A stretch of DNA of 33,807 bases from positions 1 to 33,807 of the forward strand of contig CAYQPS010000001.1 of NCBI GenBank assembly GCA_964419555.1, written 5' to 3'. Of this stretch, positions 37 to 30,193 are shown one piece after another. This DNA is from an uncultured Candidatus Saccharibacteria bacterium. GTDB taxonomy: Bacteria; Patescibacteriota; Minisyncoccia; Phycocordibacterales; UBA9973. The first letter of the stretch is position 1. Every line of letters begins with the position of its first letter. The position numbers and the translations under genes were made by a program. A model generated the notes under the pieces. That model made no database searches and was not told the DNA's origin. It saw only the letters and a list, made by a program, of their open reading frames with translations.

Positions 37-77
37 TAAGCGATTGGTCGTAGGTTCGATCCCTACCCCCGGAGCCC
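37..77 (+). tRNA. Orphan 3' half of a tRNA (Asn-like); the 5' half is absent, so this is probably an att-site remnant
   Basis: The fragment reads anticodon-stem 3' strand GCGAT (40-44), variable loop TGGTC (45-49), T-stem GTAGG (50-54), T-loop TTCGATC (55-61), CCTAC (62-66), acceptor 3' strand CCCCGGA (67-73), discriminator G74, then CCC. Nt 1-36 cannot form D or anticodon arms. A72 + G73 and the GGTCGTAGGTTCGA string resemble bacterial tRNA-Asn as I remember it. Confidence 0.55.
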
Positions 78-2952: not shown

Positions 2953-2970
2953 ATAATGGGGGTAAATACT

Positions 2971-7530: not shown

Positions 7531-7559
7531 TTGACTTTTAGTATAAAATATGCTATACT
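7531..7559 (+). promoter_or_regulatory. Promoter of the protease gene
   Basis: TTGACT (7531-7536), a 17-nt spacer, then TGcTATACT (-10 at 7554-7559). This places the track start at 7550 inside the promoter. Confidence 0.6.
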
Positions 7560-7576
7560 ATACATTAGTAGATAAT

Positions 7577-9964
7577 ATGAAAAAGAGTAGAAAATACAAC
7601 TTATTTTTCTCAGCGTTTTTAATTTTTTCCCTCCTTTTGGGTAGTTTGCCTGTTTCGGCATTTGAAGAAAATACAGTTAATATTGAGCAACCGGAGCAAC
7701 TTGTAGTTGAAATTTTACCTATTGCTGAAGAGTTTGAAATATTAACTCCTCCAGTCACCGAAGAAAATATAGAAGTAGTAGAGCCAATAGTTTCAGAAGA
7801 AATTATTGAACCAGAAAAATCTGAACAAATAGAAGAAATAGAAGGAGATTATGTAGAAGGCGAAGTTTTAGTTAAATACGCAGAGGAAAGTGAGATTTCA
7901 GTTTTAGAAATTACAGATGAGGATACAGTTGCAGAGAAAATCGCTGAACTAGAAAATGATCCGAATGTTGAATACGCAGAGCCAAACTATACTCGCGAGA
8001 TAACCAGTATTGTTACAAATGATACACACAGAGGTTTGCTGTGGGGGCTAGACAACACAGCTCAAATTATTGACGGGGTAACAGGCACGAATGATGCTGA
8101 CATAGATGCACCTGAGGCTTGGGCAATAAACGAGGGGACCAATGCTTCTGTGACAGTAGCGGTGATAGATACCGGTGTGTTGTATACTCATCCCGACTTG
8201 ACGGCAAATATGTGGGACGGGACAAATTGTAAAAATGAAAGTGGTGTTGCCATAGTGGGCGGCTGCAATCACGGCTATGACTATTTAAATAACGACAATA
8301 CGCCCCTGCCTTCCGTGCCGTCGACCCCTTCTACGTTTCATGGTACACATGTTGCAGGAATAATTGGCGGACAAAAAAATAATGATCAGGGTGTCATCGG
8401 AGTGGCTCCAAATGTAAAAATAATGGCTATCAAATTCGGACTTGATGTCTCTTCAGAAGTTAAAGCAATTGACTTTGCAACTCAAAACGGAGTAAAAGTT
8501 ATCAATGCTAGTTATGGAGGAGCTGGTTTTTCTCAACCTGAATTTGATGCTATAAGTCGCTTTAAAGACGCCGGAGGAATTTTCATCGCGGCTTCGGGAA
8601 ATAATAATGCTAACAACGATGCTACCGGATTTTATCCTGCAAGTTATGATTTAGATAATATTATTTCTGTAGCCGCTACCGACCAAAACGATTTATTGGC
8701 AAATTTTTCAAACTACGGCGCTACTTCTATCGATGTAGGTGCGCCCGGAACAAATATTTACAGTACAGTGCTTAGCAACGGTTATGATTATGCAGATGGC
8801 ACTTCTATGGCTACTCCGCATGTGACAGGTCTGGTGGCGCTACTTTGGGGTTATAGACCCAGCCTTACGGCAACAGAAGTAAAAGATTCAATTTTAGATA
8901 ATGGAGACAATCTCGCGTCTCTTGCCGGCAAAACAGTTACGGGTAAAAGAATAAATGCGTTCAATACTCTTAACGAAGATATCACTGCGCCAGTTATTAC
9001 TTTGCTTGGCGCCAGTCCGGTTGATTTTTTTGTTGGTGATCCGGCGTATATTGATGCTGGAGCCACTGCTCTCGACGACGTTGATGGAGACATTACAGCA
9101 AATATTGTTGTCGGAGGCGACGTCGTGGATATCAACCTAGCAGAAACTTATGTAATTACTTACAATGTTTCCGATACGGCAGGCAACACGGCGACGGAAG
9201 TCACTAGAACCATAAACGTTATTGTTCCAGATACCACAGCTCCCATCATTACTTTAAACGGTGCAAATCCAATGAACTTGACTGCGGGTGACACTTTTAC
9301 CGATCCGGGAGCAACGGCTCTTGACGATGTTGATGGCGCAGTCAGTGTAGTAGCTTCCGGAGTGGTTGATACTGCTGTCGTAGATACTTATACAATCTCT
9401 TACGCTGCTACTGATGTAGCTTTTAATACTGCCACAGCGACTCGTACTGTGAATGTAAATGCTGTGCCTACTCCTCCATCATCAAGTGGCGGCGGGGGCG
9501 GCGGGGGAGGTGGCGGTGGAAAAAAGAAAGTTGCTCCTTTGGTTATTTTGCCTTCGAGTCTGTCCGCAATTCCCAATGGATGCGTTTCCGGCAATTTGTT
9601 CAGCCCAATTACCGGAGCAAAGTGCCCGACAAGCTCGGCAACTATCTCTGGATGTGTTGTCGGTAATTTATTTAGCTCTGTCACTGGAGCGCCGTGTGGA
9701 AATAATTCCGCAGTTGTCGGTGGAGTCGGTGGAGTTTTGGGCGCAGAGGCATTTCAATTTACACTTTTGCTTAAACTTGGCTCACGCGGGCCGGAAGTAA
9801 TGGAGCTTCAAAAATTACTAAACAATAAAGGCTATGACTGCGGAGTGGCGGATGGCACTTTTGGTCAAAAAACTAAAAACTGTGTAGCCCTATTTCAAAT
9901 TTCAAATGGGCTTCCAGGCGTCGGCATCGTGGGTCCCATGACTCGCGCTACTTTGAATAAATAA
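7577..9964 (+). CDS. Secreted subtilisin-family (S8) serine protease with 2 Ig-like (DUF5011-type) repeats, a Gly/Lys linker, 2 Cys-bracketed short repeats and a C-terminal peptidoglycan-binding domain
   Basis: Signal peptide MKKSRKYNLFFSAFLIFSLLLGSLPVSAFE. Catalytic triad motifs VAVIDTGV, HGTHVAG and GTSMATPHV. Two ITLxGAxP...ATALDDVDG repeats. CVSGNLFSPITGAKC and CVVGNLFSSVTGAPC. PG_binding_1-like LGSRGPEVMELQKLLN...GxFGxxT. Confidence 0.85.
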   Translation: MKKSRKYNLFFSAFLIFSLLLGSLPVSAFEENTVNIEQPEQLVVEILPIAEEFEILTPPVTEENIEVVEPIVSEEIIEPEKSEQIEEIEGDYVEGEVLVKYAEESEISVLEITDEDTVAEKIAELENDPNVEYAEPNYTREITSIVTNDTHRGLLWGLDNTAQIIDGVTGTNDADIDAPEAWAINEGTNASVTVAVIDTGVLYTHPDLTANMWDGTNCKNESGVAIVGGCNHGYDYLNNDNTPLPSVPSTPSTFHGTHVAGIIGGQKNNDQGVIGVAPNVKIMAIKFGLDVSSEVKAIDFATQNGVKVINASYGGAGFSQPEFDAISRFKDAGGIFIAASGNNNANNDATGFYPASYDLDNIISVAATDQNDLLANFSNYGATSIDVGAPGTNIYSTVLSNGYDYADGTSMATPHVTGLVALLWGYRPSLTATEVKDSILDNGDNLASLAGKTVTGKRINAFNTLNEDITAPVITLLGASPVDFFVGDPAYIDAGATALDDVDGDITANIVVGGDVVDINLAETYVITYNVSDTAGNTATEVTRTINVIVPDTTAPIITLNGANPMNLTAGDTFTDPGATALDDVDGAVSVVASGVVDTAVVDTYTISYAATDVAFNTATATRTVNVNAVPTPPSSSGGGGGGGGGGGKKKVAPLVILPSSLSAIPNGCVSGNLFSPITGAKCPTSSATISGCVVGNLFSSVTGAPCGNNSAVVGGVGGVLGAEAFQFTLLLKLGSRGPEVMELQKLLNNKGYDCGVADGTFGQKTKNCVALFQISNGLPGVGIVGPMTRATLNK

Positions 9965-10000
9965 AAAACTTAAAAGTAGTAAAAAAACACGGTCAGAACA

Positions 10001-10029
10001 TTGACGCATTTTTATGGAAATGCTATTCT
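10001..10029 (+). promoter_or_regulatory. Promoter of the 103-aa ORF
   Basis: TTGACG (10001-10006), a 17-nt spacer, then TGcTATTCT (-10 at 10024-10029). GGAG (10054-10057) lies 9 nt before the ATG at 10067. Confidence 0.55.
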
Positions 10030-11339: not shown

Positions 11340-11699
11340 ATGGCAGATGATAACAATAGTGCTGGTGCTGTAGGGAGTTCTTCAGATAGTAAAAAAAACA
11401 ATAGAACTTTGTTTGGTATTTTGGCGTATCTTTGGATATTAATCGCTATCCCTTTTGCGATGGCGAAAGGTGACCCTTTCGTTAAGTTTCATATCAAGCA
11501 GGGCCTTCTATTACTCATCATTGAACTAATCGTATATATTCTAGGGCCAATGCTTTTCCTTTCATCAGGTATGATGTTGATGAGGTTAATTCATTTAATA
11601 CTCTTTGTCTTTATTATATTTGGCATCATAAATGTTTTACAGGGTAAAGAAAAAGAACTTCCACTCATCGGGCATTTCGCGAAGTATTTCAAGTTTTAA
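11340..11699 (+). CDS. Small membrane protein, DUF4870-like
   Basis: Three TM helices and the FHIKQG motif after TM1, typical of this family as I recall it. TGaTATACT lies upstream at 11286-11294. Confidence 0.6.
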   Translation: MADDNNSAGAVGSSSDSKKNNRTLFGILAYLWILIAIPFAMAKGDPFVKFHIKQGLLLLIIELIVYILGPMLFLSSGMMLMRLIHLILFVFIIFGIINVLQGKEKELPLIGHFAKYFKF

Positions 11700-11703
11700 A
11701 ATT

Positions 11704-12366
11704 TTAAAAATCCTCGTCTTCTTTTTCCAGAAGGTCATTCCAGACTAGGAGTTTCCATTCGGGTTTCTGAAACCAACCGGTGATGTATTCACAGATAGTC
11801 ATACCAGCGTTGTCTATTGGATTAAAATAACTCAAAGTATTGTATTTAGAGGCGGTCAGACTCTCTCCATAGAGCAAGTAAGCGACGACCATTTTAAGAA
11901 AAATTCCATGGGTTACCATGATAAGTCTTTCTTCTTTTCTTTCGGCTATGTAAGCCAAAAGTTTTCTAGCTCTTTCTTTTAAGTCAACGAAGTTTTCTTC
12001 ATCGGAGTATCGAAAATTGTCGTCGTGAAATCTGTTGTCAATAAGACCGACAATTTGCGCTACATCTTTTTCCGTTCCAGAGCGTCCGACTATTTCTGTA
12101 GGATTTTTTCTTTCCACTAATAGGTCGCAATACTCGACAGGCATATTTAATTCCTTGGCGATGATGCCCGATGTCTCGCGAGTGCGCTGATATGGACTCG
12201 CAATTATTACCTGGGGTCGTCCTTTCTTCTTAGGAAACTTTTTTGCAGTTTCCATGGCTTGCGCGCGTCCTTTCTCGGTCAGTGGTCCCTCAGGTCCTTG
12301 TCGGATGCCTTTTGCATTGAGTACGGTCTCTCCATGTCGAACGAAATAAATTAATTTTACTGGCAT
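11704..12366 (-). CDS. Histidine phosphatase (phosphoglycerate-mutase-like) family protein
   Basis: The FVRHGET (RHG) motif and a later VTHG are present. I prefer the ATG at 12366 over the TTG at 12372. TGcTATAAA (12383-12375) lies 8 nt upstream. Confidence 0.8.
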   Translation of the reverse strand: MPVKLIYFVRHGETVLNAKGIRQGPEGPLTEKGRAQAMETAKKFPKKKGRPQVIIASPYQRTRETSGIIAKELNMPVEYCDLLVERKNPTEIVGRSGTEKDVAQIVGLIDNRFHDDNFRYSDEENFVDLKERARKLLAYIAERKEERLIMVTHGIFLKMVVAYLLYGESLTASKYNTLSYFNPIDNAGMTICEYITGWFQKPEWKLLVWNDLLEKEDEDF

Positions 12367-12438: not shown

Positions 12439-13050
12439 ATGGCCGAAATAATCGAATGGATACAGGCGCTTTTTTCTAATTATCCGCACTACCAATATTT
12501 GATTATTTTTTTAGGTGCGGGTTTCATAGGTGAGCCCGCTATTTTACTTTTCGGGTTTCTGGCCGCGACCGGTGTCTTGTCTATTGGGGCTGTAATTATC
12601 TTCGGAGTGCCGGGAGCTTTTTTGTCGGACTGTTTGTGGTTTTGGCTTGGCAAAACTCGCCCTATTCGAAAGTTAATTTCTCATCGCCACGCGACTACTT
12701 TTTTGGAAACTATTATAGAGACCATGAGACGGGCCAGTCGAGGGAATTATCCTCTGGCTCTAGTGTTTGCAAAATTTGTTACTGGCACTCGTATTCCGAT
12801 GATTTTACATATGAGTAATAACCAGTTCCCGTTTTTAAAGTTCATGCGCTTCAACACTATAGCAACTTCTTTTTGGGCTTCGGTTGTAATTTCTATAGGT
12901 TTTCTTTCTGGTCTTGGGTTTACACTTCTCTCCGGAGCTCTCAAGAGCGCCTATGCGGGTATCGGATTTATTTTCTTGATTGTTGTAGCCATAATTCTAT
13001 TCCAAAAATGGCTTAAAAAGAGATTTAGAGACAAAGAAGAAGTAAAATAA
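12439..13050 (+). CDS. DedA/VTT-family membrane protein
   Basis: A polytopic protein with GAGFIGEPA and FAKFVTGTRIP motifs resembling DedA signatures. Confidence 0.65.
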   Translation: MAEIIEWIQALFSNYPHYQYLIIFLGAGFIGEPAILLFGFLAATGVLSIGAVIIFGVPGAFLSDCLWFWLGKTRPIRKLISHRHATTFLETIIETMRRASRGNYPLALVFAKFVTGTRIPMILHMSNNQFPFLKFMRFNTIATSFWASVVISIGFLSGLGFTLLSGALKSAYAGIGFIFLIVVAIILFQKWLKKRFRDKEEVK

Positions 13051-13378: not shown

Positions 13379-13846
13379 ATGCGCAATGGAAAGTCCACAA
13401 TAAAAAAGAAAAAGAAGCTGGTCATGGTAAGTGGAGGTTTTGACCCGGTTCACATTGGCCATGTTCGCTTATTTAAAGAAGCTCGCAAATTGGGTGATAA
13501 GTTGGTTGTGTTGCTCAACAATGATAATTGGCTAATTTACAAAAAAGGTTTTGTCTTTATGCCGGAACATGAGCGCAAAGAAGTGATAGAAGCCTTTGAA
13601 GGAGTGGATGAGGTAATTGTAAGTAGTCATAAAAAGAATACAAAAGACATAAGTATCAGTAAAGAAATACGAGCCATTCGTCCCCATGTATTCGCTAAAG
13701 GCGGGGACCGCCATGTTGGTAATATCCCGACTCCCGAAGTCTTGGTTTGCCGAGAAATAGGATGTGTCATAGTAAATGACGTTGGGTTTGGGGGAAAAGT
13801 GCAAAGTTCATCGGAGTTGGTAAAGAAAGCCAAAAAGTTAAGATAA
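13379..13846 (+). CDS. Cytidylyltransferase-family nucleotidyltransferase (RfaE domain II / TagD-like)
   Basis: The motif is GGFDPVHIGHV (HxGH). Length 155 aa. Confidence 0.75.
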   Translation: MRNGKSTIKKKKKLVMVSGGFDPVHIGHVRLFKEARKLGDKLVVLLNNDNWLIYKKGFVFMPEHERKEVIEAFEGVDEVIVSSHKKNTKDISISKEIRAIRPHVFAKGGDRHVGNIPTPEVLVCREIGCVIVNDVGFGGKVQSSSELVKKAKKLR

Positions 13847-13884: not shown

Positions 13885-14235
13885 ATGAAGGAATTAGAAA
13901 TATTCCAAGTGGAGAGGCCTTGGGGCAACTTTAGGCAGTTTACGAAAAACACTCCCTCCACTGTTAAAGTTATTACAATTAAACCACTCGAGCAACTTAG
14001 TCTACAGAGTCACCAAAAGCGCTCAGAATTTTGGCGAATTATTTCCGGCAATGGTACTGTAGAGATAGGGGAAAACAAACACGACGCCAAGGCGGGGGAC
14101 GAGTTCAATACTTCTCTTGGTGCAAAACATCGTATAATAGCAGGTGAAGCAGGCATCGCAGTGCTCGAGATTTCAACTGGAGAATTTGATGAAGAAGACA
14201 TTATTCGTTACGAGGATAAATATGGTCGCTCTTAA
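13885..14235 (+). CDS. Cupin protein, mannose-6-phosphate isomerase type II C-terminal-domain-like
   Basis: RPWGNF...LSLQSHQKRSEFWRIISGNG is the typical PMI type II cupin motif. Confidence 0.7.
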   Translation: MKELEIFQVERPWGNFRQFTKNTPSTVKVITIKPLEQLSLQSHQKRSEFWRIISGNGTVEIGENKHDAKAGDEFNTSLGAKHRIIAGEAGIAVLEISTGEFDEEDIIRYEDKYGRS

Positions 14236-15364
14236 AAAGGTTAAAAAAAATACGGTCAAGAAAGTATCTTCTATAAAAAAGAAGGTGGTTAAAGCTAAGG
14301 TAGTGAAAAAAACCAAACCTTCTAGCGTAAAAAAAATTGTAAAGAAAAAAAAGGGAACCGAACTAACGAGATCTCTCAAGAACCCTATAATTGAGCCGAG
14401 ACCATATTACTGGGAATCAAAGGCAACTCTCAACCCCGCTGCTTTTCTCTCCGGTAGTAGAGTGCATCTAGTCTATCGAGCCATCGGAGACGATGATTCT
14501 TCTGTTTTAGGTTACGCTTCCTCTCCGGACGGATATAAAATTGACGAAAGACCCGCTTACTTTATTTACCGTAGAGATAATAATTTTTCGAAATCGGATT
14601 TCAATGTTGCCCCCATCGACTATGTTTCAGGAGGAGGATGGAGCGGGGGGTGCGAAGACCCGAGACTTACACTCCTAGGCGACAGAGTTTATATGCTCTA
14701 CACTGCTTTCGACGGATGGGGGTCGGTGCGGATAGCCCTGACTTCTATAAAGTTAGAAGATTTTGAGAACAAAAAATGGAATTGGAGAAATCCGGTTTTA
14801 ATTTCTCCGCCTGGTGAAATACACAAGAATTGGGTTCTTTTTCCAGAAAAAATAAATGGAAAGTTTGCGATACTTCATAGTATTTCGCCGGAAATCATGA
14901 TTGATTATTTCGATAGTTTGGATGAATTAAATGGTAGAAAATTTATTCATAGCATTCACCAGAGTGACCCTCGCTGGCAACGGAGAGAGAGAGGTATAAG
15001 GGGAGTCGGGCCTGTTCCAATCAAGACAGAATTAGGTTGGCTTGTTTTATATCACGCCATAGAAGAGCATGAGCCCAATCGTTACAAACTTTTCGCTATG
15101 ATTTTGGATATAGAAGACCCGACAAAAATCCTGTATCGTTCTGTGAGTCCGATTTTAGAGCCTGAAACGAAATACGAAAATGAGGGATATAAATGGGGTG
15201 TCATTTATGCCTGTGGAGCAGTGGTGAGGAGTGGAGAGCTACTTGTTTATTATGGAGGAGCCGATAAAGTCGTCGGGGTCGCATCCATCAAGCTCGCGGA
15301 CCTACTAGAGGACTTAAAGAAACACAAAGCGACAAGATTAAAAAAAGAAGCTACTAGGGTCTAA
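14222..15364 (+). CDS. GH130-family glycoside phosphorylase/hydrolase-like protein with a Lys-rich N-terminal tail
   Basis: GCEDPRLT, LYTAFDG and the LVYYGGAD beta-propeller motifs are present. The N-terminus is VKKNTVKKVSSIKKKVVKAKVVKKTKPSSVKKIVKKKKG. I chose the ATG at 14222 (GAGGA upstream), which overlaps the cupin stop by 14 nt. Confidence 0.75.
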   Translation: MVALKKVKKNTVKKVSSIKKKVVKAKVVKKTKPSSVKKIVKKKKGTELTRSLKNPIIEPRPYYWESKATLNPAAFLSGSRVHLVYRAIGDDDSSVLGYASSPDGYKIDERPAYFIYRRDNNFSKSDFNVAPIDYVSGGGWSGGCEDPRLTLLGDRVYMLYTAFDGWGSVRIALTSIKLEDFENKKWNWRNPVLISPPGEIHKNWVLFPEKINGKFAILHSISPEIMIDYFDSLDELNGRKFIHSIHQSDPRWQRRERGIRGVGPVPIKTELGWLVLYHAIEEHEPNRYKLFAMILDIEDPTKILYRSVSPILEPETKYENEGYKWGVIYACGAVVRSGELLVYYGGADKVVGVASIKLADLLEDLKKHKATRLKKEATRV

Positions 15365-15371
15365 AATTTAC

Positions 15372-17306
15372 ATGTTTGTCGCAAAACGTTCAATTCACAA
15401 TCCAATACTAGTGCCCGATAGAGACCATTATTGGGAAGCCTTCGCGACCTTCAACATGAGTGTCGTTAAAAAAGGTACAACATTTTATGGTATGTATCGT
15501 GCTATTTCGATGGTGGACGTTTTGAGGAATCCGCAACAGGTTTCAATCATAGGTATCGGAAAGGGGAAAGACGGAACTCATTTTGAAAATCGGACCCCCT
15601 TTATTATTCCAACCTTAGAATGGGAGAAATATGGATGCGAAGACCCGCGCGTTACTTTTTTTGAGGGGAAATATTATATTTTCTATACTGCACTCTCTTC
15701 ATATCCATTTGAGGCAAACGGTATCAAGGTGGCGGTGGCCGTGTCAGAGAATTTAAAAAAGGTTGATGAAAAACATTTGGTTACTCCGTTTAATGCTAAA
15801 GCCATGACTCTCTTTCCAGAGCGAATCAATGGCAAAATAACTGTAATTTTTTCAGCCCATACAGATTCACCTCCAGCCAAGATGGTGATCGCTCAAGTAA
15901 GTAAAATAGAGGAACTATGGTCTCAAAGTTTTTGGGAAAAGTGGCATGAGAAGATTGACGAGCATGTAATAGACCCGAGACGAAATGAATTTGACCACGT
16001 AGAAGTCGGAGCTCCGCCAATCAAAACAGAGCACGGTTGGTTGGTTATTTATTCCCACATTCAAAATTATTTTAAAACGTCGGATAACTTCGAAAGAATT
16101 TTCGGCATTGAAGCCCTTCTGCTTGATTTGGATGACCCGAGCAAAATAATCGGTAGAACTGGTGGTCCGATACTTGTACCGGAAGAGCCCTACGAACTCT
16201 CCGGCTATGTAGGCAATATAGTTTTTCCGAGTGGAGCGGTACTCGAAAAAAATATACTGACCGTATATTATGGTGCCGCTGATACCATCATTTGTTCGGC
16301 GCACGTGAATGTGCATGATCTGATTTCCAGCATGCGCCCGGAAACCAAAGAACGTTTTCATTTCAAAAGATTTTCGGGCAATCCTATTATTTCTCCTAGA
16401 AGTGAAAACAACTGGGAAGCCAAGGCAGCATTTAATCCGGCGGCAATATTTCTGAAAGGCAAAACGCATCTTCTTTATCGCGCCCTGTCTCCCGACAATA
16501 CTTCTACCTTTGGCTATGCCGCGATAGAGAATGGTACAGAAGTAGTGGAGCGTCTATCAGAACCTGTGTACGTGCCGAGGGAGGAATTTGAAAATAAGAA
16601 AATCGGTGGTGCAAACTCTGGGTGTGAGGACCCGCGATTGACTAAAATCGGAAAAAATATATACGTATGTTATACCGCTTTCGATTGTATTGGTCCTCCG
16701 CGAGTGGCTGTCTCTGTGATTTCTGAGAAAGATTTTTTGGCTCACAAATGGAATTGGGAAAAGCCTTTTCTCATCACCCCGCAGGACTTTGATGACAAAG
16801 ACACCTGCATCTTTCCTGAGAAGTTTCCTGAAGGATACCTAATATTGCATCGTGTCGGTAACGAAATTTGCGGAGATTACTTACACTCGCTTGATTTTAA
16901 AAATGAGAAAGTAAAAAAATGCATAAGAATTATCGGTCCGCGAACAAACATGTGGGACAACTTAAAAGTCGGTATTACGGCTCCGCCTATCAAAACAAAG
17001 TATGGCTGGCTACTTTTGTATCACGGAATATCTAGAAATCATCATACTTACCGCATCGGTTCAGTATTGCTTGACCTAAAGGACCCGGCGATAGTCATAG
17101 CTCGCAGTACGGACCCTATTTTTGAACCAGAAGAGCAGTATGAAAAAGAAGGAGTTGTGAACAATGTTGTTTTTCCCTGCGGTATGGTTGAAAAAGATGG
17201 TTTGCTGTACATTTACTACGGCGGAGCAGACCGAGTGGTCGGCGTCGCCACCATGGAAATGGAAGTCATTCTCGAAGCGCTTCTGCGCGGACATAAGCAT
17301 AAATAA
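15372..17306 (+). CDS. Tandem double GH130-like protein
   Basis: Two full copies of the module are present: GCEDPRVT...VYYGAAD and GCEDPRLT...IYYGGAD. Length 644 aa. Confidence 0.75.
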   Translation: MFVAKRSIHNPILVPDRDHYWEAFATFNMSVVKKGTTFYGMYRAISMVDVLRNPQQVSIIGIGKGKDGTHFENRTPFIIPTLEWEKYGCEDPRVTFFEGKYYIFYTALSSYPFEANGIKVAVAVSENLKKVDEKHLVTPFNAKAMTLFPERINGKITVIFSAHTDSPPAKMVIAQVSKIEELWSQSFWEKWHEKIDEHVIDPRRNEFDHVEVGAPPIKTEHGWLVIYSHIQNYFKTSDNFERIFGIEALLLDLDDPSKIIGRTGGPILVPEEPYELSGYVGNIVFPSGAVLEKNILTVYYGAADTIICSAHVNVHDLISSMRPETKERFHFKRFSGNPIISPRSENNWEAKAAFNPAAIFLKGKTHLLYRALSPDNTSTFGYAAIENGTEVVERLSEPVYVPREEFENKKIGGANSGCEDPRLTKIGKNIYVCYTAFDCIGPPRVAVSVISEKDFLAHKWNWEKPFLITPQDFDDKDTCIFPEKFPEGYLILHRVGNEICGDYLHSLDFKNEKVKKCIRIIGPRTNMWDNLKVGITAPPIKTKYGWLLLYHGISRNHHTYRIGSVLLDLKDPAIVIARSTDPIFEPEEQYEKEGVVNNVVFPCGMVEKDGLLYIYYGGADRVVGVATMEMEVILEALLRGHKHK

Positions 17307-24600: not shown

Positions 24601-24875
24601 GTGAGGTGATAATATCTTTTACTTCCACCAGCTTCCGCTGTGCGGTCTTTGCGATTTCCAGCGGTCATGTAGGCCTCCACTCCGATGATGGGTTTAATGC
24701 CTTCTTTTTTTGCTAGTTTGTAAAATTCAATAGCGCCATACATATTTCCATGGTCAGTGATAGCCATGGCGGGCATGCCGTCTTTCTTGGCAAGTTCTAC
24801 CAAATCTTCAAGCTTTGAAAGGCCGTCTAATAGCGAATAGTGGCTGTGTGTATGGAGGTGGACGAAGCTTGCCAT
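21666..24875 (-). CDS. dnaE: DNA polymerase III alpha subunit
   Basis: PHP domain FVHLHTHSHYSLLDG, a Pol III alpha core and a C-terminal OB fold. Length 1069 aa. Confidence 0.93.
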   Translation of the reverse strand: MASFVHLHTHSHYSLLDGLSKLEDLVELAKKDGMPAMAITDHGNMYGAIEFYKLAKKEGIKPIIGVEAYMTAGNRKDRTAEAGGSKRYYHLTLLAKNMEGYKNLIRLVTLANLEGYYYKPRIDREILRQHSSGIIALSGCLGGELSQAVMRGDNKKADELVVEFKDIFGKENYFIEIQCHPHVENDKTVREALVALSKKHNVKLVATQDSHYPCTDDHEAHHTLLQINTQGDGKDTGKFEFSEDDFSFLSTEKAIEVFKDTPEAVTNTMLIADMCNLELPLGKWVFPDFKIEKGISYDEKLRELAYGGFKRLEIKETPEIKERVEYELKIIVDKGFSPYFLVVGDLLRYAKENGILTTIRGSVAGSMVTYLLGITNINPIEYGLPFERFLNPFRPSAPDIDMDFADNRRDEMIEYAKKKYGEDKVAQIGTFGTMMARGAVRDVARSLGYPYTVGDRLSKMIPMGSQGMPMTIDHAMEIVPELTDAYKSEQDTKKIIDLAKKLEGCVRHISVHAAGVVMSPLPLSEYVPLQLDPKGGKVITQYDMYSIEDAGLLKFDFLGIRNLSILADSISLVKKFYDIDIDIERIPLNDKKTFSLLAKGETEGLFQLNGSGMTRYLKELKPTSIHDINAMVALYRPGPMETIPEYIKRKHNPALVKYLDPRMKKFLGQSYGLIVYQDDLLFCALELAGYNWEEVDKFRKAVGKKIPAEMAAQYEKFTKGIVANGQTQEFADKLWKLFEPFQAYGFNKAHAASYGQVAYQTAYMKANYPVEYMAAILTAESGDVEKVAEIIAECKNMKIAVLPPNINESFGGFTCLPEGKGYFIDKEHKSEKIRFGFYTIKNLGTDIGDAIIVERQQNAAFKSITDFLDRVKHKNLNKKSMEALIKSGCFDEIEERGKLLANMEDMLLYNHESGKQSKNQTSLFGGGSNVEAPTFKLKSGTEATMAEKLLWEKELLGLYISGHPLDRLRDKLESRNVNIKKIKEEIGNGLPVTIAGIIDTARQVITKGNERMAFLKISDLTGSIEAVAFPSIFKESMEILVSEKCIAFSGKVSLRNGEKSIIIEAVKEI

Positions 24876-24881
24876 GTTTTT

Positions 24882-24896
24882 ATGATAGCATATAAT
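24882..24896. promoter_or_regulatory. Back-to-back -10 boxes for dnaE (TGcTATCAT, minus strand, 24890-24882) and gap (TATAAT, 24891-24896)
   Basis: Each box ends exactly 6 nt before its own ATG (24875 and 24903). The intergenic spacer is only 27 bp. Confidence 0.5.
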
Positions 24897-24902
24897 ATAT
24901 CT

Positions 24903-25931
24903 ATGAAAAAAATTCGCGTTGGCATCAATGGTTTTGGTAGAATCGGGAGAGCATTTCTCAAAATTGCATGGGAGAGGCCGGAGATTGAAATCGTGGCGGT
25001 AAATGATTTAGGTAGTATCGACAACATGGCGTACTTGCTCAAATACGATACAGCTTATGGAAAATGGAAACACGAGAATATCAAACACGACGGAGAGTAT
25101 CTGATAATTGATGGCAAGAAAGTAAAATTTTTGGCAGAGAAAGACCCAAGCAAACTTCCTTGGAAAGATTTAGAGATTGATGTGGTTGTAGAATCAACGG
25201 GGATATTTATTACGTATGAAAGTTCCAAAGTTCACTTGGATGCTGGCGCGAAAAAAGTGGTAGTAACTGCGCCGATGAAAGACGAACCGCAAGCTGGGGT
25301 AGAGGGTGCCACGATATTACTCGGAGTAAATGAAGAAAAGTTTGATACATGCGTGATAACTTCCAACGCCTCATGTACCACGAACGCAGGCAGTCCACTC
25401 ATTGCAATTTTAGACGAGGGGCTCGGAGTAGAGAAGGCGCTTTTAAATACAGTTCATGCACTTACTAATAGTCAGCCCACTGTTGATAGTATAAACAAAC
25501 ACAATGTGCGCGAAGGACGAGCAGGTGGGCACAATATCGTACCGACATCTTCAGGTGCGGCCATTGCTGTGACCAAAGCATTTCCAAAACTCACTGGGCT
25601 GTTTGATGGTCTGGCTGTACGTGTGCCTATGATAACTGGTTCAATAGTGGATATCACTTTTATCTCAAAGAAAAATACAACAGCTGAAGAAGTAAACGAG
25701 ATTCTTAAAAAAGCGACAAGCGAACCACGCTGGAAAGGCATTTTTGCTGTAACCGAAGAGGAGCTCGTATCTAGCGACATTATCGGGAGCCCTTATGGTT
25801 CTATGGCAGATTTGGGGCTTACTCGCGTTGTCGGCGGAAATCTAGTGAAAGTTATGGCTTGGTATGACAACGAAATGGGGTACACTTATACACTTGTGGA
25901 CCATGTCATTAAAACAGCAAAAAAGTTATAA
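24903..25931 (+). CDS. gap: Glyceraldehyde-3-phosphate dehydrogenase
   Basis: MKKIRVGINGFGRIGR and the catalytic SNASCTTN. The track start at 24840 overlaps dnaE. Confidence 0.93.
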   Translation: MKKIRVGINGFGRIGRAFLKIAWERPEIEIVAVNDLGSIDNMAYLLKYDTAYGKWKHENIKHDGEYLIIDGKKVKFLAEKDPSKLPWKDLEIDVVVESTGIFITYESSKVHLDAGAKKVVVTAPMKDEPQAGVEGATILLGVNEEKFDTCVITSNASCTTNAGSPLIAILDEGLGVEKALLNTVHALTNSQPTVDSINKHNVREGRAGGHNIVPTSSGAAIAVTKAFPKLTGLFDGLAVRVPMITGSIVDITFISKKNTTAEEVNEILKKATSEPRWKGIFAVTEEELVSSDIIGSPYGSMADLGLTRVVGGNLVKVMAWYDNEMGYTYTLVDHVIKTAKKL

Positions 25932-25964
25932 TAGATTATATAATTAAATATAACTTTTTAATCT

Positions 25965-25988
25965 ATGAAAATTTTTATAGGGACAGAC
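25965..25988 (+). repeat. Relic copy of the first 8 codons of rpiB (left direct repeat)
   Basis: ATGAAAATTTTTATAGGGACAGAC matches 29720-29743 at 23 of 24 positions. It reads as a 9-codon mini-ORF MKIFIGTDS* (25965-25994). Confidence 0.8.
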
Positions 25989-26000
25989 AGCTAAGATATT

Positions 26001-29000
26001 ATGCCCAGTGAAAGTAAACTTGGAACATCTCCCATTAAACTTCCAGAGGCGAAACAACTCAAAGAAGATAGTATTTCTGACGCAGGCCAGGAAGCAATAA
26101 ATAAGAAAATTGAAGAACTGGAGCAGAGCATTGAAAAAACGCTCAAGATACTTGCTCCACTCGAAGAAGACGAAGAAGAATACGTTGATTCTCAATATGA
26201 TTCGCTAATTGAAGATGCGGAAGAATTTTTACGGCTTGGCAAAGCATCAGTAATTTCTGAACTTGAAATATTAGAGAAAGCCAAAAAAATTCTTACCGAA
26301 AGGCTTCATGCGGTGATAGATGACGTGTATGAATTTTCTCGTCCCAATCGACCTCCAGTTGACTCAGGACTTCTTCGTCGAACCAAGCTTGCATTGCTCC
26401 GTGAACACGATTTACATAACGGAGGAGGTCAGAGTTTAAAAGAGTTGAACATAAGGAAGTTATCTTCGTGGTTCAATAGTGATCCATATGGTCCTAACCG
26501 TTCACACCGAGATAGCCATCTCCTATCTACAAAAGAAGTAGATTCTCTTATCGAAGCGGGGTATGGAGATAATCTGTTAGATGGTTTTGATCTATATACA
26601 TTTAGAGATTATTTCGAAGATCTCTGCATGCCTGAATCTTTATTCAAGTTATATCTGGCAAAAGAATTCGATAATAATTCTTGGCATGTAGTTGTCCCGA
26701 CTCTTCAAGGAAAAATTAAAAGAGGAGAAAAATTTTCAAAAGAAATATTTAATAAACTTCTCCATAGTGGTCTGTCACATGAATGTTTGGAGCACTTCAA
26801 TGCTTTTGAAGGTGGAGATATTTTTGAAGTAATAAGAAAATATAATATTGGATATCCATATAATGCAAGCAGACAGATTGGCATAATTAAGAAACTTGGT
26901 TTGGATACTCCAGAACTTATTGATTATGTAGTAAAGAATAATTGGATAACGAATAACGACCAAAAAATTCTGGAAGAGTATGGTGATTATAATAAATTTT
27001 TTGGGAAAATTAATTCTGGGCCAGTATTTGCAAGTTCTGCGCCGCCAAACTCAGAAGATATGTCTTTTGCAAAAGGACTAATTTCTTCAGGGAAATTGGG
27101 ACTTTTTTATCGGGAGAAGGGATTTGTAGAATACTTACTTCAGAATGAAAGAGAATGGTTTATGAATGAGGTGATACGTCAAGATCAAGAATTTCTTATT
27201 CTACGGAATATGAACTCGGAAGAGGTCAGTACTTATTTAAATAAACTTTTAGATAATAAAGAATATGAAATGGTAAAAGATGTACTATCGTATGAAGGTA
27301 GGAATTTTCAAGCCCACGTTCTTGAGTCATCGCTATACGAAAGAATTGCAGTTACTTTACCCGAAGAGGTGATGCTTTCTTTGGTGCAGATTTTTAAAGA
27401 CCTTCCTTCCAAGATTTATACCGAACTATTAGAAACACTGCCTGATAATCAGCGCACTAATGACACTATTTTAAAAGTTATTGAAAGTTTTGATTTTGGA
27501 GACAATCCTGCCTTTAAAACACAAAAAGAATATCAATCGTTCGTCGCGCAGTTTCAGGAAACTGGAATTCCTCTTCCTTTTTCAGGAAGTGGGTGGGAGA
27601 ATACACCGATTTCCTTTTCAACATTTACTTTAGTGCCAGAGACAGAAAGAATGCACTGGATAAATACACTGAAAGATTTAAAAAATTCTGTAAATAATCC
27701 AATTCCAATTTCAGATATAATCAAAACTCTTTCCCTTAACCAACCATTGTTTTCTTTACCCGCTCCGGAAAGACAAGCACTGTTTGCTGACTTGGATACT
27801 ATTCGAAACCTTATAAAACGGGATACTTTTAGCCAAAAAGCATTACAAGAAGATTTTTCACCTAGCCAAATTTCGGAAACTAAGAATGTTTTACTTAGTA
27901 TCCAAGGCTTTCTTAGTAAAAGCGATTTTTCAGAGAAAAATATTGATAGCTATCTTCAGGAGGCAGCTGAGTCCAAAAGTGTTCAAGAACTTAAAGTCTT
28001 AAGTGATCGAACCCAACTATTACTTGGTGAGACATTTTCGTATTCCGAATCGACCCACCTCATATATTTGTCAGAATTTGCTAGAAAAGATAGCACACTA
28101 GAAGAGAGGAGAGCGTTTCTTAAGAGAGTAGAGGGAGGAGTAAACGCAGCGAGTCGTAATCAACCTGTCCTAGAAGATAATCAAGATGTGTATCGAGTAA
28201 TTTGCGAGGAAGTTTACCCAAAAAGAAATTATAATAGTTACAGTCATATTGAGCAATACAAAGATCGATCGAAAGATCTCGATGGGTTTAAATTTAATAA
28301 AGAAGGATATCGTATAAAACTCGACGGGGTGCAAGAGTATCGTGTGAAGGAGGGAGAAGAAATTGATCCTAGCATATTGGAAAAGTACTCAGGAAGAGTT
28401 CAGAAATTAGTTTCTCTTGCAAACCCTGAAGCCTTGGAACGTTTCATGACGAATAATATATCTGCTTCAGGGGCCGAAGATATCTCTATTCCTGAAACTC
28501 TTGAAGGAAAAATTTTGAAATATATTCAAGGCAAAACGGACGATGAAATTTCTGATGTCATGTTTGCTTACCAGCTTCGCGATGAGTACCAAGCTTTTCT
28601 GCAGGGAACCCGTGACCAGGCGGGAGAAGAAAGCACGCAAGTAGAAAAAGAATACATTATGCTCACCGAGCTGGCGGAAAGATATGGAGATAGGCTCAAG
28701 GAAACCATTAAGGAAATATTCGGAAAGGTAATGTCAGGACCAGATAAGGACGTATTCACAGAAAGCGGAGAAAAATTGGTATCAGAAGATGATGTTCGAG
28801 AACTGGCAGACAAAATATCTCTAGACCTAGCAAAGCTACCGCAAGAAAAAATTACTGACAAGGTAGTACAGAAGAAGATTATTGCAACTCTCAAAGCTCG
28901 TTTTCAAAAAATTTATCAGTTGAAAGACCAAGTGGAAAGTTTGGCTATGAAATTTGGCGCTGACTCGGTGTCTAACCTTCCCGAACAATTACCTATCGAG

Positions 29001-29681
29001 ATAGCTGAAGTCTTGCGTAATATAGCAGTGATAGGCAATCTAGATGGCAAACACATCGAGGCAATTCAAGATAAGTGCTATAGGGAGATTCAGATAGAAC
29101 TTGAAAAGTATGAAGAAGTAATGGAAGTCGATACTTTGAAAGAAAAGTTTGGCGCACAGGAGAAAACCATAAAGAAACGTTCGATTCATGGGTATTTTAG
29201 TAAAAACAGAGAGAATGCTCATGCGCGCATGGTGGCAGACGTGTGTATTGCGGCAGACCCAAAAATGCTCGAAAATCCTAATTACTTTGAGTTTGTGCTC
29301 TTTGACGAGGATAGAGAAAAAAATATAGGTACGGTGATGCTTCTTGTGATGGAAGAACCGAAGAGTAAAAAGAAATATCTTTTATATTGTCCGAACCCTT
29401 CGACTGATATTGTAAGCAAAGTTTCATCGGGGAAACTTTATCAATGGCTCACGAAACAGGTTACAGATTTTGCAGAAGCGAATGGCTTCGAGGGTGTACT
29501 CACTGACACACGCCATGGTCATGCTACAAACAGACCAGGTAAATTCTACGAATCCCTTACGTCATCTGTGGTTCGCGAAAAGGACGGCAGTTCCAAGAAG
29601 ATGAATTTAAAACAATCGCATAGCTTAGGTGGTTCGTATGCATACCAGAATGATTTATCAGTAATCTGGGAGAAGCCCTAA
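26001..29681 (+). CDS. Large hypothetical protein (1226 aa), acidic, predicted soluble, no recognisable domain
   Basis: An uninterrupted 3.7-kb ORF with no signal peptide or TM helix and no motif I can assign. An acidic stretch lies near the N-terminus (EEDEEEYVD). Confidence 0.7.
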   Translation: MPSESKLGTSPIKLPEAKQLKEDSISDAGQEAINKKIEELEQSIEKTLKILAPLEEDEEEYVDSQYDSLIEDAEEFLRLGKASVISELEILEKAKKILTERLHAVIDDVYEFSRPNRPPVDSGLLRRTKLALLREHDLHNGGGQSLKELNIRKLSSWFNSDPYGPNRSHRDSHLLSTKEVDSLIEAGYGDNLLDGFDLYTFRDYFEDLCMPESLFKLYLAKEFDNNSWHVVVPTLQGKIKRGEKFSKEIFNKLLHSGLSHECLEHFNAFEGGDIFEVIRKYNIGYPYNASRQIGIIKKLGLDTPELIDYVVKNNWITNNDQKILEEYGDYNKFFGKINSGPVFASSAPPNSEDMSFAKGLISSGKLGLFYREKGFVEYLLQNEREWFMNEVIRQDQEFLILRNMNSEEVSTYLNKLLDNKEYEMVKDVLSYEGRNFQAHVLESSLYERIAVTLPEEVMLSLVQIFKDLPSKIYTELLETLPDNQRTNDTILKVIESFDFGDNPAFKTQKEYQSFVAQFQETGIPLPFSGSGWENTPISFSTFTLVPETERMHWINTLKDLKNSVNNPIPISDIIKTLSLNQPLFSLPAPERQALFADLDTIRNLIKRDTFSQKALQEDFSPSQISETKNVLLSIQGFLSKSDFSEKNIDSYLQEAAESKSVQELKVLSDRTQLLLGETFSYSESTHLIYLSEFARKDSTLEERRAFLKRVEGGVNAASRNQPVLEDNQDVYRVICEEVYPKRNYNSYSHIEQYKDRSKDLDGFKFNKEGYRIKLDGVQEYRVKEGEEIDPSILEKYSGRVQKLVSLANPEALERFMTNNISASGAEDISIPETLEGKILKYIQGKTDDEISDVMFAYQLRDEYQAFLQGTRDQAGEESTQVEKEYIMLTELAERYGDRLKETIKEIFGKVMSGPDKDVFTESGEKLVSEDDVRELADKISLDLAKLPQEKITDKVVQKKIIATLKARFQKIYQLKDQVESLAMKFGADSVSNLPEQLPIEIAEVLRNIAVIGNLDGKHIEAIQDKCYREIQIELEKYEEVMEVDTLKEKFGAQEKTIKKRSIHGYFSKNRENAHARMVADVCIAADPKMLENPNYFEFVLFDEDREKNIGTVMLLVMEEPKSKKKYLLYCPNPSTDIVSKVSSGKLYQWLTKQVTDFAEANGFEGVLTDTRHGHATNRPGKFYESLTSSVVREKDGSSKKMNLKQSHSLGGSYAYQNDLSVIWEKP

Positions 29682-29719
29682 TTTGTTGTTGAAAAGTAAT
29701 TAAGGAGTATAATATACAT

Positions 29720-29743
29720 ATGAAAATATTTATAGGGACAGAC
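29720..29743 (+). repeat. Right direct repeat (the authentic rpiB 5' end)
   Basis: ATGAAAATATTTATAGGGACAGAC; see 25965-25988. Confidence 0.8.
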
Positions 29744-30193
29744 CATGCGGGCTTTGTACTTAAAGAGAAACTAGTAACTTTGCTCAAGGCTCAAGAGCAT
29801 GAAGTTGTGGATAAAGGAGCATACGACTACAACGAGGGAGATGATTATCCAGACTTCGTTGTTCCGGTTGCGCAAGAAGTCTCCCGTGACCCGGACAATT
29901 CGCGCGGAATTATTCTCGGAGCAACTGGTGAAGGCGAAGCTATCGCTGCGAACAAATTTCCGCATGTTCGAGCTATTGTTTATTACGGAGCTTCACAGTC
30001 AGTAGTGGACGATGAAGCAGACGTAATTGTTCGCTCTCGTGAACACAACAATTCCAATGTTCTATCTTTAGGGGCTAGGTATTTTACAGAAGATACGATG
30101 ATAATCGCGGTGAACCTTTGGCTCAAGACTCCTTATAGTCAAGGAGAACGGCACATTCGCAGGCTCGGGAAAATAGATGCCATTAAGATTTGA
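29720..30193 (+). CDS. rpiB: Ribose-5-phosphate isomerase B (Glu-base, actinobacterial-like variant)
   Basis: MKIFIGTDHAGF is the typical N-terminus. GIILGATGEGEAIAANK lacks the usual Cys and has Glu as in M. tuberculosis RpiB (from memory). TATAAT (29708-29713) lies 6 nt before the ATG. Confidence 0.85.
   Translation: MKIFIGTDHAGFVLKEKLVTLLKAQEHEVVDKGAYDYNEGDDYPDFVVPVAQEVSRDPDNSRGIILGATGEGEAIAANKFPHVRAIVYYGASQSVVDDEADVIVRSREHNNSNVLSLGARYFTEDTMIIAVNLWLKTPYSQGERHIRRLGKIDAIKI

Follow-up and report, generated by a model that had tools for sequence, protein, structure and literature searches.

A large gene with a predicted divergent GNAT-fold domain lies behind a short copy of the rpiB start in a conserved Patescibacteria operon

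A direct repeat of the rpiB start brackets a large gene between gap and rpiB

The sugar-phosphate operon on contig CAYQPS010000001.1 (GenBank assembly GCA_964419555.1, an uncultured Candidatus Saccharibacteria bacterium) contains, between the genes gap and rpiB, a large open reading frame (ORF), termed BIG here, which is preceded by a short copy of the start of rpiB. We analyzed BIG, its relatives and the repeat in a stretch of 33,807 nucleotides of this contig (the window). An initial annotation, made from the sequence alone, had described BIG as an orphan gene inserted at or into the 5' end of rpiB by an unknown mechanism. The features at the locus, in window coordinates, are as follows.

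24903-25931, forward strand: gap, glyceraldehyde-3-phosphate dehydrogenase (Pfam Gp_dh_N and Gp_dh_C)
25932-25964, forward strand: AT-rich spacer of 33 nt from the gap stop to the stub, partly covered by a palindrome at 25920-25959
25964-25988, forward strand: left copy of the repeat, TATGAAAATTTTTATAGGGACAGAC, a T followed by nucleotides 1-24 of rpiB
25965-25994, forward strand: stub ORF, MKIFIGTDS and stop, eight rpiB codons followed by AGC TAA
26001-29681, forward strand: BIG, 1226 amino acids (aa), 140.5 kDa, pI 5.07, no transmembrane segment, a member of an unnamed family of the Candidate Phyla Radiation (CPR) without Pfam match
29682-29719, forward strand: spacer of 38 nt from BIG to rpiB, with AAGGAG at 29702-29707 and TATAAT at 29708-29713, then six nucleotides and the rpiB ATG
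29719-29743, forward strand: right copy of the repeat, TATGAAAATATTTATAGGGACAGAC, the genuine rpiB start
29720-30193, forward strand: rpiB, ribose-5-phosphate isomerase B (Pfam LacAB_rpiB)

The two copies form a 25-nt direct repeat in which 24 of 25 positions are identical (23 of 24, as first reported, when counted from the ATG), with a separation of 3755 nt. When the window was searched with up to three mismatches allowed, only these two copies were found, and none of 100 dinucleotide-preserving shuffles gave a match. An upstream copy of its own first 24 nt, at more than 17 of 24 positions, was absent for every other window ORF of at least 100 aa. The similarity runs from -1 to +24 of rpiB, and the spacers upstream of the two copies (33 nt and 38 nt) are unrelated to each other. 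The right copy is the real start of rpiB (PF02502, E = 1.9e-36) and the left copy a dead stub of nine codons, both as described in the initial annotation; the stop codon of the stub is followed by GATATT (6 nt) and then by the ATG of BIG. The 24-mer, which might have been a common element of the genome, is no dispersed repeat: related loci totalling 1.85 Mb contain 63 sites that match it at up to four mismatches, 62 of which run on as rpiB (CAYGY), and the sole other site is the left copy in the window. The first ~30 nt of rpiB are strongly conserved at the nucleotide level across relatives, and the rpiB start of one relative (L028) matches the stub equally well as the window's own rpiB.

Pfam also identified rpe and a split tkt downstream, and dnaE upstream on the minus strand. 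Together with the conservation of this block in relatives (see below), the Pfam matches agree with the earlier view that BIG interrupts a coherent gap, rpiB, rpe and tkt cluster. The encoded protein is acidic and probably soluble, as had been proposed from its sequence, and neither a hydrophobic segment nor a signal-like N-terminus was found in it. The insert consists of BIG only; no recombinase was detected within or beside it, the nearest one being encoded at 63-1610, 24 kb off. No terminal inverted repeats or insertion sequence end were found at its ends, and the window contains no tRNA, tmRNA or Rfam match, again in line with what had been reported. A transposon target-site duplication was considered for the repeat and rejected, as the insert shows no transposase, terminal inverted repeats or tRNA. 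Since the window contains no N letters, the repeat locus is not a scaffolding gap.

A promoter and terminator scan of the window gave counts not above those in shuffles, with no terminator-like site between gap and rpiB. An AT-rich palindrome at 25920-25959, with perfectly abutting arms of 20 nt that are 85% complementary, lies over the gap stop codon just 5' of the stub; the AT content of its stem is too high for it to be a classical terminator.

The gap-rpiB junction is variably occupied in related genomes

For comparison we used 80 loci (L001-L080) from an RpiB scan of species-representative genomes, in which the top RpiB identity was 82%. The loci are labelled Candidatus Nomurabacteria, Paceibacterota or Patescibacteria, and many metagenome-assembled entries carry the label 'uncultured Candidatus Saccharibacteria'. 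The block dnaE(-)-gap-rpiB-rpe-tktN-tktC is conserved among these loci. In 74 loci we could measure how far the rpiB start lies from the gap stop: 34 have an empty junction (-4 to 44 nt), 39 an occupied one (298-4343 nt), and one is anomalous. No BIG relative was detected in the 80 loci by tblastn or by profile hidden Markov model (HMM). Because the junction is empty in 34 of the 74 and no BIG relative occurs in the 80, BIG is an addition to a conserved operon, as expected from the initial annotation, in which an empty site in relatives would have supported insertion.

The other junctions of the gap-rpiB-rpe-tktN-tktC operon are all variably occupied too. The inserts form recurrent families, which include dapF (diaminopimelate epimerase, on the opposite strand), a pyridoxal phosphate-dependent enzyme, Fic/DOC, a TrpR-like protein, inositol monophosphatase, HigB(Gp49)/HigA(HTH_3) and Y1-transposase-like ORFs. 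The HigB(Gp49)/HigA(HTH_3) pair alone was found at three junction types (gap-rpiB, rpe-tktN and tktN-tktC; L001, L034, L035, L038, L042, L066 and L069). Among the cargo at gap-rpiB itself are dapF, the pyridoxal phosphate-dependent enzyme, Fic and HigBA. The gap-rpiB junction thus behaves as a general recombination hotspot for accessory genes. At occupied gap-rpiB sites rpiB is mostly preceded by (G)GTATAAT-N6-7-ATG, whereas at empty sites it comes straight after the gap stop and the element is absent. The arrangement upstream of rpiB in the window, AAGGAG-TATAAT-N6-ATG, is of the type seen in most occupied-site relatives.

In its general features the junction resembles hotspots flanked by core genes, having the same flanks in more than 70 genomes and a content that varies from empty to 4.3 kb with toxin-antitoxin, Fic and transposase-like genes. 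It differs from the usual hotspots in that it lies inside a tightly packed central-metabolism operon, in that the cargo usually runs in the direction of the operon and has a TATAAT-N6-7-ATG promoter for the downstream gene behind it, and in that no integrase or tRNA is involved.

We considered whether the HigBA genes form a cassette that moves as a discrete element and rejected this, as the copies are just 65-79% identical, occur in permuted order and have no clean boundary. L035 and L038 differ in whether the HigBA pair or a 125-aa membrane ORF comes first. In 14 loci we observed ORFs of ~210 aa that weakly match IS200-like Y1 transposases, at three junction types and mostly on the opposite strand (for example, L071 1217-1864 and L001 13823-14449, minus strand); one of the loci with a BIG orthologue described below, L081, has such an ORF 3' of tktC.

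BIG belongs to a large unnamed family of CPR bacteria

Searches of the BIG protein against Pfam, NCBIfam, PADLOC and PHROGs gave nothing meaningful, only a 15-bit match to DcuS and one PHROG match of 15.7 bits, and a word-indexed protein search returned only the query itself, which accounts for the apparent orphan status of the gene. An exhaustive HMMER scan of 1.84 billion cluster representatives with residues 27-1226 gave a different picture: 269 representative clusters matched at E<=1e-3 and 97 at E<=1e-30, so that the description of BIG as an orphan did not hold. Family members were carried by 42 metagenome loci. BIG is a real, expressed-type gene of a Candidatus Nomurabacteria genome and a member of a large, unnamed, fast-evolving CPR/Patescibacteria family. 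Fast-evolving CPR proteins can evidently pass for orphans through the search method alone (none by word-indexed search, 269 by HMMER).

Most of the matching proteins have 800-3100 aa and share only the part that corresponds to query residues ~680-1226. Two modules were distinguished on this basis.

26034-27560, forward strand: N-module (residues ~12-520), without Pfam or PDB sequence match
28038-29678, forward strand: C-module (residues ~680-1226), a predicted helical domain plus GNAT-fold domain, always C-terminal in the family

The C-module always stands at the extreme C-terminus of family members, and the N-module is common to only 13 of the 150 best family matches. No Pfam domain or informative name was found among the members; Pfam was blank for five further full-length proteins of the family (up to 3135 aa), and 20 C-modules gave scattered noise only at E<=1, as did 11 N-modules. 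A PDB profile search with the N-module gave no credible match.

The family was found on Patescibacteria-type contigs. Tryptophan stands at conserved glycine columns in ~12 of 108 family representatives, and two members (L092 6231-7730 and L097 4160-5647) have 16 and 20 in-frame TGA codons, respectively, at conserved glycine columns; the family thus extends into UGA-recoded CPR lineages. No family members were detected in IMG/VR viral contigs. Across 45 family loci no conserved neighbor gene was found; the members are co-directional within diverse housekeeping operons, such as a MacB-type ABC operon (P0004) or the interval between mreC and tgt (P0005 and P0018). Being absent from Pfam and, as sampled, restricted to CPR/Patescibacteria, the family is a reasonable target for studies of symbiont-specific biology.

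The C-terminal domain is predicted to adopt a divergent GNAT fold

A structure prediction by AlphaFold 2 (AF2) for residues 650-1226, with an alignment of 73 sequences, reached a mean pLDDT of 93.2 and a pTM of 0.81 (a single-sequence prediction for residues 901-1226, with a pLDDT of 47, was unusable). The following features were assigned.

29160-29678, forward strand: predicted GNAT-fold domain (residues ~1054-1226), from AF2, Foldseek and alignments
29244-29246, forward strand: codon of Cys1082, invariant, between helices α1 and α2

When the model was compared with the PDB by Foldseek, the 50 best matches were all GNATs (GCN5-related N-acetyltransferases), with probabilities of 0.82-1.00 (at least 0.97 for 46 of them) and a target TM-score of up to 0.67. 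They included NatD (7kd7), AAC(3)-Ia (1bo4), a RimI-like protein (7n1l), GNA1, Hat1, Gcn5 and the GmvT toxin. In BFVD, many of the better-aligned matches (probability >=0.9) were annotated as acetyltransferase or GNAT and the others were unnamed. The order of secondary structure elements assigned by DSSP, β1-α1-α2-β2-β3-β4-α3-β5-α4-β6-β7, is the canonical order of GNATs (in model numbering, strands E and helices H: E411-418, H422-429, H439-442, E446-453, E458-469, E476-484, H494-511, E516-519, H532-539 and E558-575). Model residues ~405-577 correspond to ~1054-1226 of the protein, and the preceding ~400 residues are mostly helical and without structural match. In alignments of 20-116 sequences, C1082, P1133, N1161 and N1177 are invariant, and A1075-R1076, N1132, T1176, R1178 and F1182 are near-invariant. 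In known GNATs, the α1-α2 region, where Cys1082 lies, forms the acceptor site.

On the strength of the model, residues ~1054-1226 are read as a divergent GNAT-fold domain, the term divergent being used because neither a GNAT profile nor the R/QxxGxG/A loop matches. The statement of the initial annotation that no domain could be recognized is correct for the sequence libraries; at the level of the predicted fold it no longer holds, as a GNAT fold appears at the C-terminus. The topology is that of the GNAT superfamily (NatD/Naa40, 7kd7 and 4u9v; AAC(3)-Ia, 1bo4 and 9mgu; RimI-like, 7n1l), and no other part of the model has structural matches. In contrast to these enzymes, the domain shows neither sequence similarity to GNATs nor the pyrophosphate-loop motif, has an invariant cysteine between α1 and α2, and sits behind ~1050 residues of unmatched, mostly helical protein. 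Acetyltransferases of the Pat/PatZ/YfiQ type, which are soluble cytoplasmic proteins with a long N-terminal region and a C-terminal GNAT domain, resemble BIG in layout. The N-terminal region of Pat resembles NDP-forming acyl-CoA synthetases and is recognized by Pfam; BIG has no such Pfam domain, and the likeness is one of layout only.

Several results weigh against this assignment, which draws on predicted structure only. The pyrophosphate loop R/QxxGxG/A (motif A, β4-α3) is absent: the corresponding segment, YLLYCPNPSTDIVSKVSSGK, has the consensus PNPSxxxLxxVS and no GxG/A, so that use of acyl-coenzyme A (acyl-CoA) is not assured. The Pfam GNAT families matched neither BIG, nor five full-length members, nor 20 C-modules, even at E<=1. 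PDB profile searches with the C-module and with its GNAT part gave no credible match, and hhalign of the GNAT part with E. coli RimI gave a probability of 0.07. The Foldseek E-values, at ~2e-2, are weak, as the alignments cover no more than 130-190 of the 577 residues.

The conserved C-terminal ~550 residues would fold as one unit, a helical domain packed on the GNAT-fold domain. The model points to a cytoplasmic acyl-transferase that acts on a macromolecular substrate, with specificity possibly supplied by the variable N-module. It is also possible, though to us less convincing, that the GNAT-fold domain is not an acyl-CoA acetyltransferase and either uses another donor (aminoacyl-tRNA, as in Fem or L/F-transferase) or serves, without catalysis, as a binding module of a scaffold or other structural protein. 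The replacement of the CoA loop R/QxxGxG/A by a conserved PNPSxxxxxxVS, the lack of a match between any member and a GNAT Pfam model, and the presence of a FemAB-family protein at rank 16 in BFVD would fit such a role. However, the strict conservation of C1082, N1132, N1161 and T1176-N1177-R1178 around the core suggests a catalytic or ligand site, and the best structural matches are acetyl-CoA enzymes. We prefer the reading of BIG as acyltransferase-like; the alignment-backed prediction has turned a domain-less protein of 140 kDa into a testable hypothesis of a GNAT-fold acyltransferase with an invariant cysteine.

Orthologues of BIG at the same site lack the repeat

The closest full-length relatives of BIG are P0002 (locus L081, from an NCBI metagenome-assembled genome, MAG) and P0003 (locus L082, from a Logan assembly), both from other Nomurabacteria. 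Over the full length they are 41% and 39% identical to BIG, respectively, by BLASTP (the HMMER table gives 44% and 41%), and their identity to one another is 43%. Both lie in the context dnaE(-)-gap-X-rpiB-rpe-tkt, with their ATG 3 nt (L081) and 12 nt (L082) past the gap stop. Their N-modules are far nearer to that of BIG than the N-module of any other member; the three proteins are an orthologous group tied to the gap-rpiB junction. No copy of the rpiB start was found between gap and rpiB in L081 or L082, where the top match of 15/24 equals background. The suggestion that homologues elsewhere might also be flanked by a duplicated 5' end of the downstream gene therefore failed for these two loci, and the picture of a one-off arrival gave way to that of a site which holds BIG orthologues in two other Nomurabacteria and many unrelated genes in further relatives. 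For the initial annotation, the ORF at this position without a repeat in all relatives would have been a sign of an ancestral arrangement; the other carriers do have the ORF without a repeat, but this is not so for the relatives as a whole.

In a neighbor-joining (NJ) tree of concatenated DnaE, Gap, TktN and TktC from 40 loci, the carriers fall into three separate clades and are no closer to one another than to non-carriers. Their nearest sampled neighbors (L058, L050 and L077) all lack BIG, and L050, the sister of the carrier L081, has a clean gap-rpiB junction of 13 nt.

These data bear on the possibility that BIG is ancestral at the gap-rpiB junction and was lost many times, in which case the stub would be a later ectopic copy of ~24 nt (by template switching or a gene-conversion patch) and would say nothing about the arrival of BIG. 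Long residence is suggested by three orthologues as divergent as 39-43% identity at one site, by the near-native composition of the C-terminal half of BIG, and by a start-region duplication in another locus (L016, see below) that brackets no insert. We nevertheless regard this course of events as rather unlikely: it needs many independent and precise losses that left clean gap-rpiB junctions of 1-17 nt (e.g., L050), it makes a non-tandem 24-nt copy 3.7 kb away, right at the boundary of an accessory gene, a coincidence, and the start of the repeat at the start codon fits the joining of two upstream contexts.

Further observations were made on the two carrier loci. The RpiB of L081 (13777-14265) is 44% identical to that of the window, as compared with 65-83% for the flanking proteins, suggesting that the rpiB allele itself was replaced. 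Additional large ORFs without Pfam match lie a few kb 3' of tkt in both L081 (20131-23735+, >1587 aa) and L082 (13989-16871, 960 aa); they gave no match to the C- or N-module HMMs.

Copies of gene starts occur at other occupied junctions

We scanned 95 insert-bearing junctions for copies of the start of the downstream gene and found three cases, beyond the window, above the shuffle maxima. At the rpe-tktN junction of L001, a 24/24 copy (~11686-11718 versus 12914-12950) forms a stub that continues in frame into a 180-aa membrane ORF, behind which lies a HigBA pair. At the gap-rpiB junction of L038, a 30-nt copy (8917-8946 versus 10000-10029) has its own GGTATAAT in front of it and is followed by a HigBA pair and the 125-aa ORF. 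At the tktN-tktC junction of L016, a 29-nt copy (13562-13590 versus 13638-13666) lies 76 nt upstream of the true start and forms a stub ORF of 24 codons whose stop is 1 nt before the tktC start. The stubs differ in the gene copied and in length, which speaks for recombination of a generic kind as their origin and against a shared attachment (att) site.

Direct repeats of ~20-30 nt are typical of att cores, and one may ask whether a small mobile cassette was integrated site-specifically at the 5' end of rpiB, carrying a replacement start and served by a recombinase in trans, with the repeat as the attL/attR core. The large serine recombinase encoded at 63-1610 on the minus strand of the window, and the HigBA cassettes that accompany similar stubs, at different junctions, in L001 and L038, could be taken in this sense. 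Serine recombinases, however, make 2-bp crossovers and leave no 24-nt repeats. The insert itself has no recombinase (the only one being 24 kb away), no terminal inverted repeats and no tRNA; the repeat is missing from L081 and L082, which have the same gene in the same position; the stubs of L001, L038 and L016 copy different genes over different lengths and have no att sequence in common; and no family member was detected in viral contigs. Such an integration seems improbable.

The stubs at other junctions also bear on the suspicion that the contig is an assembly chimera of strains with and without BIG, the stub being an artefact of the join. In its favor, the window spans an entire MAG contig, metagenomes often contain mixtures of strains, and relatives have almost the same sequence at the rpiB start. 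A de Bruijn mis-join, though, needs a shared k-mer, and the sequence at the join, GACAGAC/AGCTAAG, has no more than ~6 nt in common with any gap tail; the contig is without N; and stubs of this sort were found in four independent assemblies that come from different studies. We consider a chimera very improbable indeed.

It may be asked whether such duplications of the first 24-30 nt are the signature of a recurrent mode of accessory-gene insertion in Nomurabacteria, perhaps in CPR generally. A gene would land inside the start of the downstream gene, take over its initiation region (as a coupling upstream ORF, or uORF, or by N-terminal fusion) and supply the gene it displaces with a TATAAT-N6-ATG promoter and a new 5' end. 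As a separate point, the cargo would represent a new CPR-wide class of Cys-dependent GNAT-fold enzymes. We put this forward as a long shot.

The repeat as a possible scar of one-sided illegitimate recombination

The reading we prefer is that BIG is an acyltransferase-like accessory gene of a CPR family, residing in a hotspot, and that the repeat is the scar of one-sided illegitimate recombination; we would give this combined reading a probability of roughly 55%. The recipient would have been an allele without BIG (gap-33 nt-rpiB), so that the 33-nt spacer between gap and the stub would be its original gap-rpiB intergenic region, and the donor an allele gap'-BIG-38 nt (promoter)-rpiB' from another Nomurabacteria strain. 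The right crossover would have been homologous, in rpiB or beyond. At the left, an illegitimate join would have fused position +24 of the recipient rpiB to donor DNA that lies a few bases before BIG, leaving the rpiB initiation region of the recipient as the 9-codon stub. The donor gap sought under this model would end in ...ACAGACAGCTAA, followed by GATATT and the ATG of BIG.

The event might be a case of homology-facilitated illegitimate recombination (HFIR), or an equivalent one-sided event. Foreign DNA is known to be integrated by HFIR with the help of a single homologous anchor (PMC3240628). The locus resembles its products in having a conserved anchor on one side (rpiB and the downstream operon) and a homology-free junction on the other, as well as foreign DNA together with a short duplication of the start of the anchor gene. 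The first 30 nt of rpiB, being highly conserved, would serve as a good homologous anchor. Among CPR bacteria, Saccharibacteria have been shown to be naturally competent (PMC10187176).

A model with two parents accounts for a duplication that starts precisely at the start codon, and also for the phylogenetically patchy presence and absence of BIG. Under this model the other carriers, which have no stub, would have acquired or inherited the gene by two homologous crossovers.

Some points weigh against this origin. The competence on record is that of CPR Saccharibacteria, and the NJ tree is crude. The direction of the event (gain versus local rearrangement), and its mechanism with it, we infer from the features described above. 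AGCTAA as a gap end, and the proposed donor tail with ACAG(AC) microhomology, were found in no sampled relative. ACAG is common to positions +18-21 of rpiB and to the conserved K-T codons near gap 3' ends, a comparison that lacks the donor-side sequence; that AGCTAA is the tail of the donor gap is thus our conjecture. Base composition backs a foreign origin of BIG only weakly: the GC content at third codon positions (GC3) is 0.31 for BIG as a whole and 0.26 for residues 1-650, as compared with 0.385-0.435 for the neighboring operon genes, while the C-terminal half, at 0.37, is near-native and other genes in the window have equally low GC3.

The retained initiation region of the former rpiB may have been put to use, in that translation of BIG may be coupled to that of the stub. 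The ATG of the orthologues lies 3-12 nt past the gap stop in L081 and L082, which is the usual geometry of translational coupling, and the 6 nt between the stub stop and the ATG of BIG resemble this spacing. By analogy, a role of the stub as an upstream coupling cistron (uORF) for BIG is plausible.

The locus displays, base by base, how accessory genes enter or leave a central-metabolism operon in genomes nearly devoid of classical mobile elements, and it suggests that recombination between conserved flanks occasionally leaves a 5'-stub scar, perhaps one that is reused for translation. Current understanding is not overturned by this; the type of recombination scar is a known one, and the predicted GNAT-fold family is new.

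Other features of the window

The longest ORF of gap begins with GTG at 24840. Relatives align only from about query residue 11-22 on, and the likely start is the ATG at 24903, upstream of which a TTGCCA-16-TATAAT element (24869-24896; promoter scan score 11/12) stands at TATAAT-N6-ATG spacing. This arrangement, of the type of leaderless transcripts, was observed at both gap (24869-24905) and rpiB (29702-29722).

At the left end of the contig, the large serine recombinase (63-1610, minus strand; Resolvase, Recombinase and Zn_ribbon_recom domains) has a GC content of 0.37, and an OLD-family nuclease (2956-4905, forward strand; AAA_15 and an OLD-like TOPRIM domain) one of 0.31. The pair may mark the edge of a mobile or defence island and has no relation to the BIG finding. 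The window further encodes a subtilase with Ig-like and peptidoglycan-binding domains (7550-9964) and two adjacent GH130 paralogues of the mannoside phosphorylase type (14144-17306).

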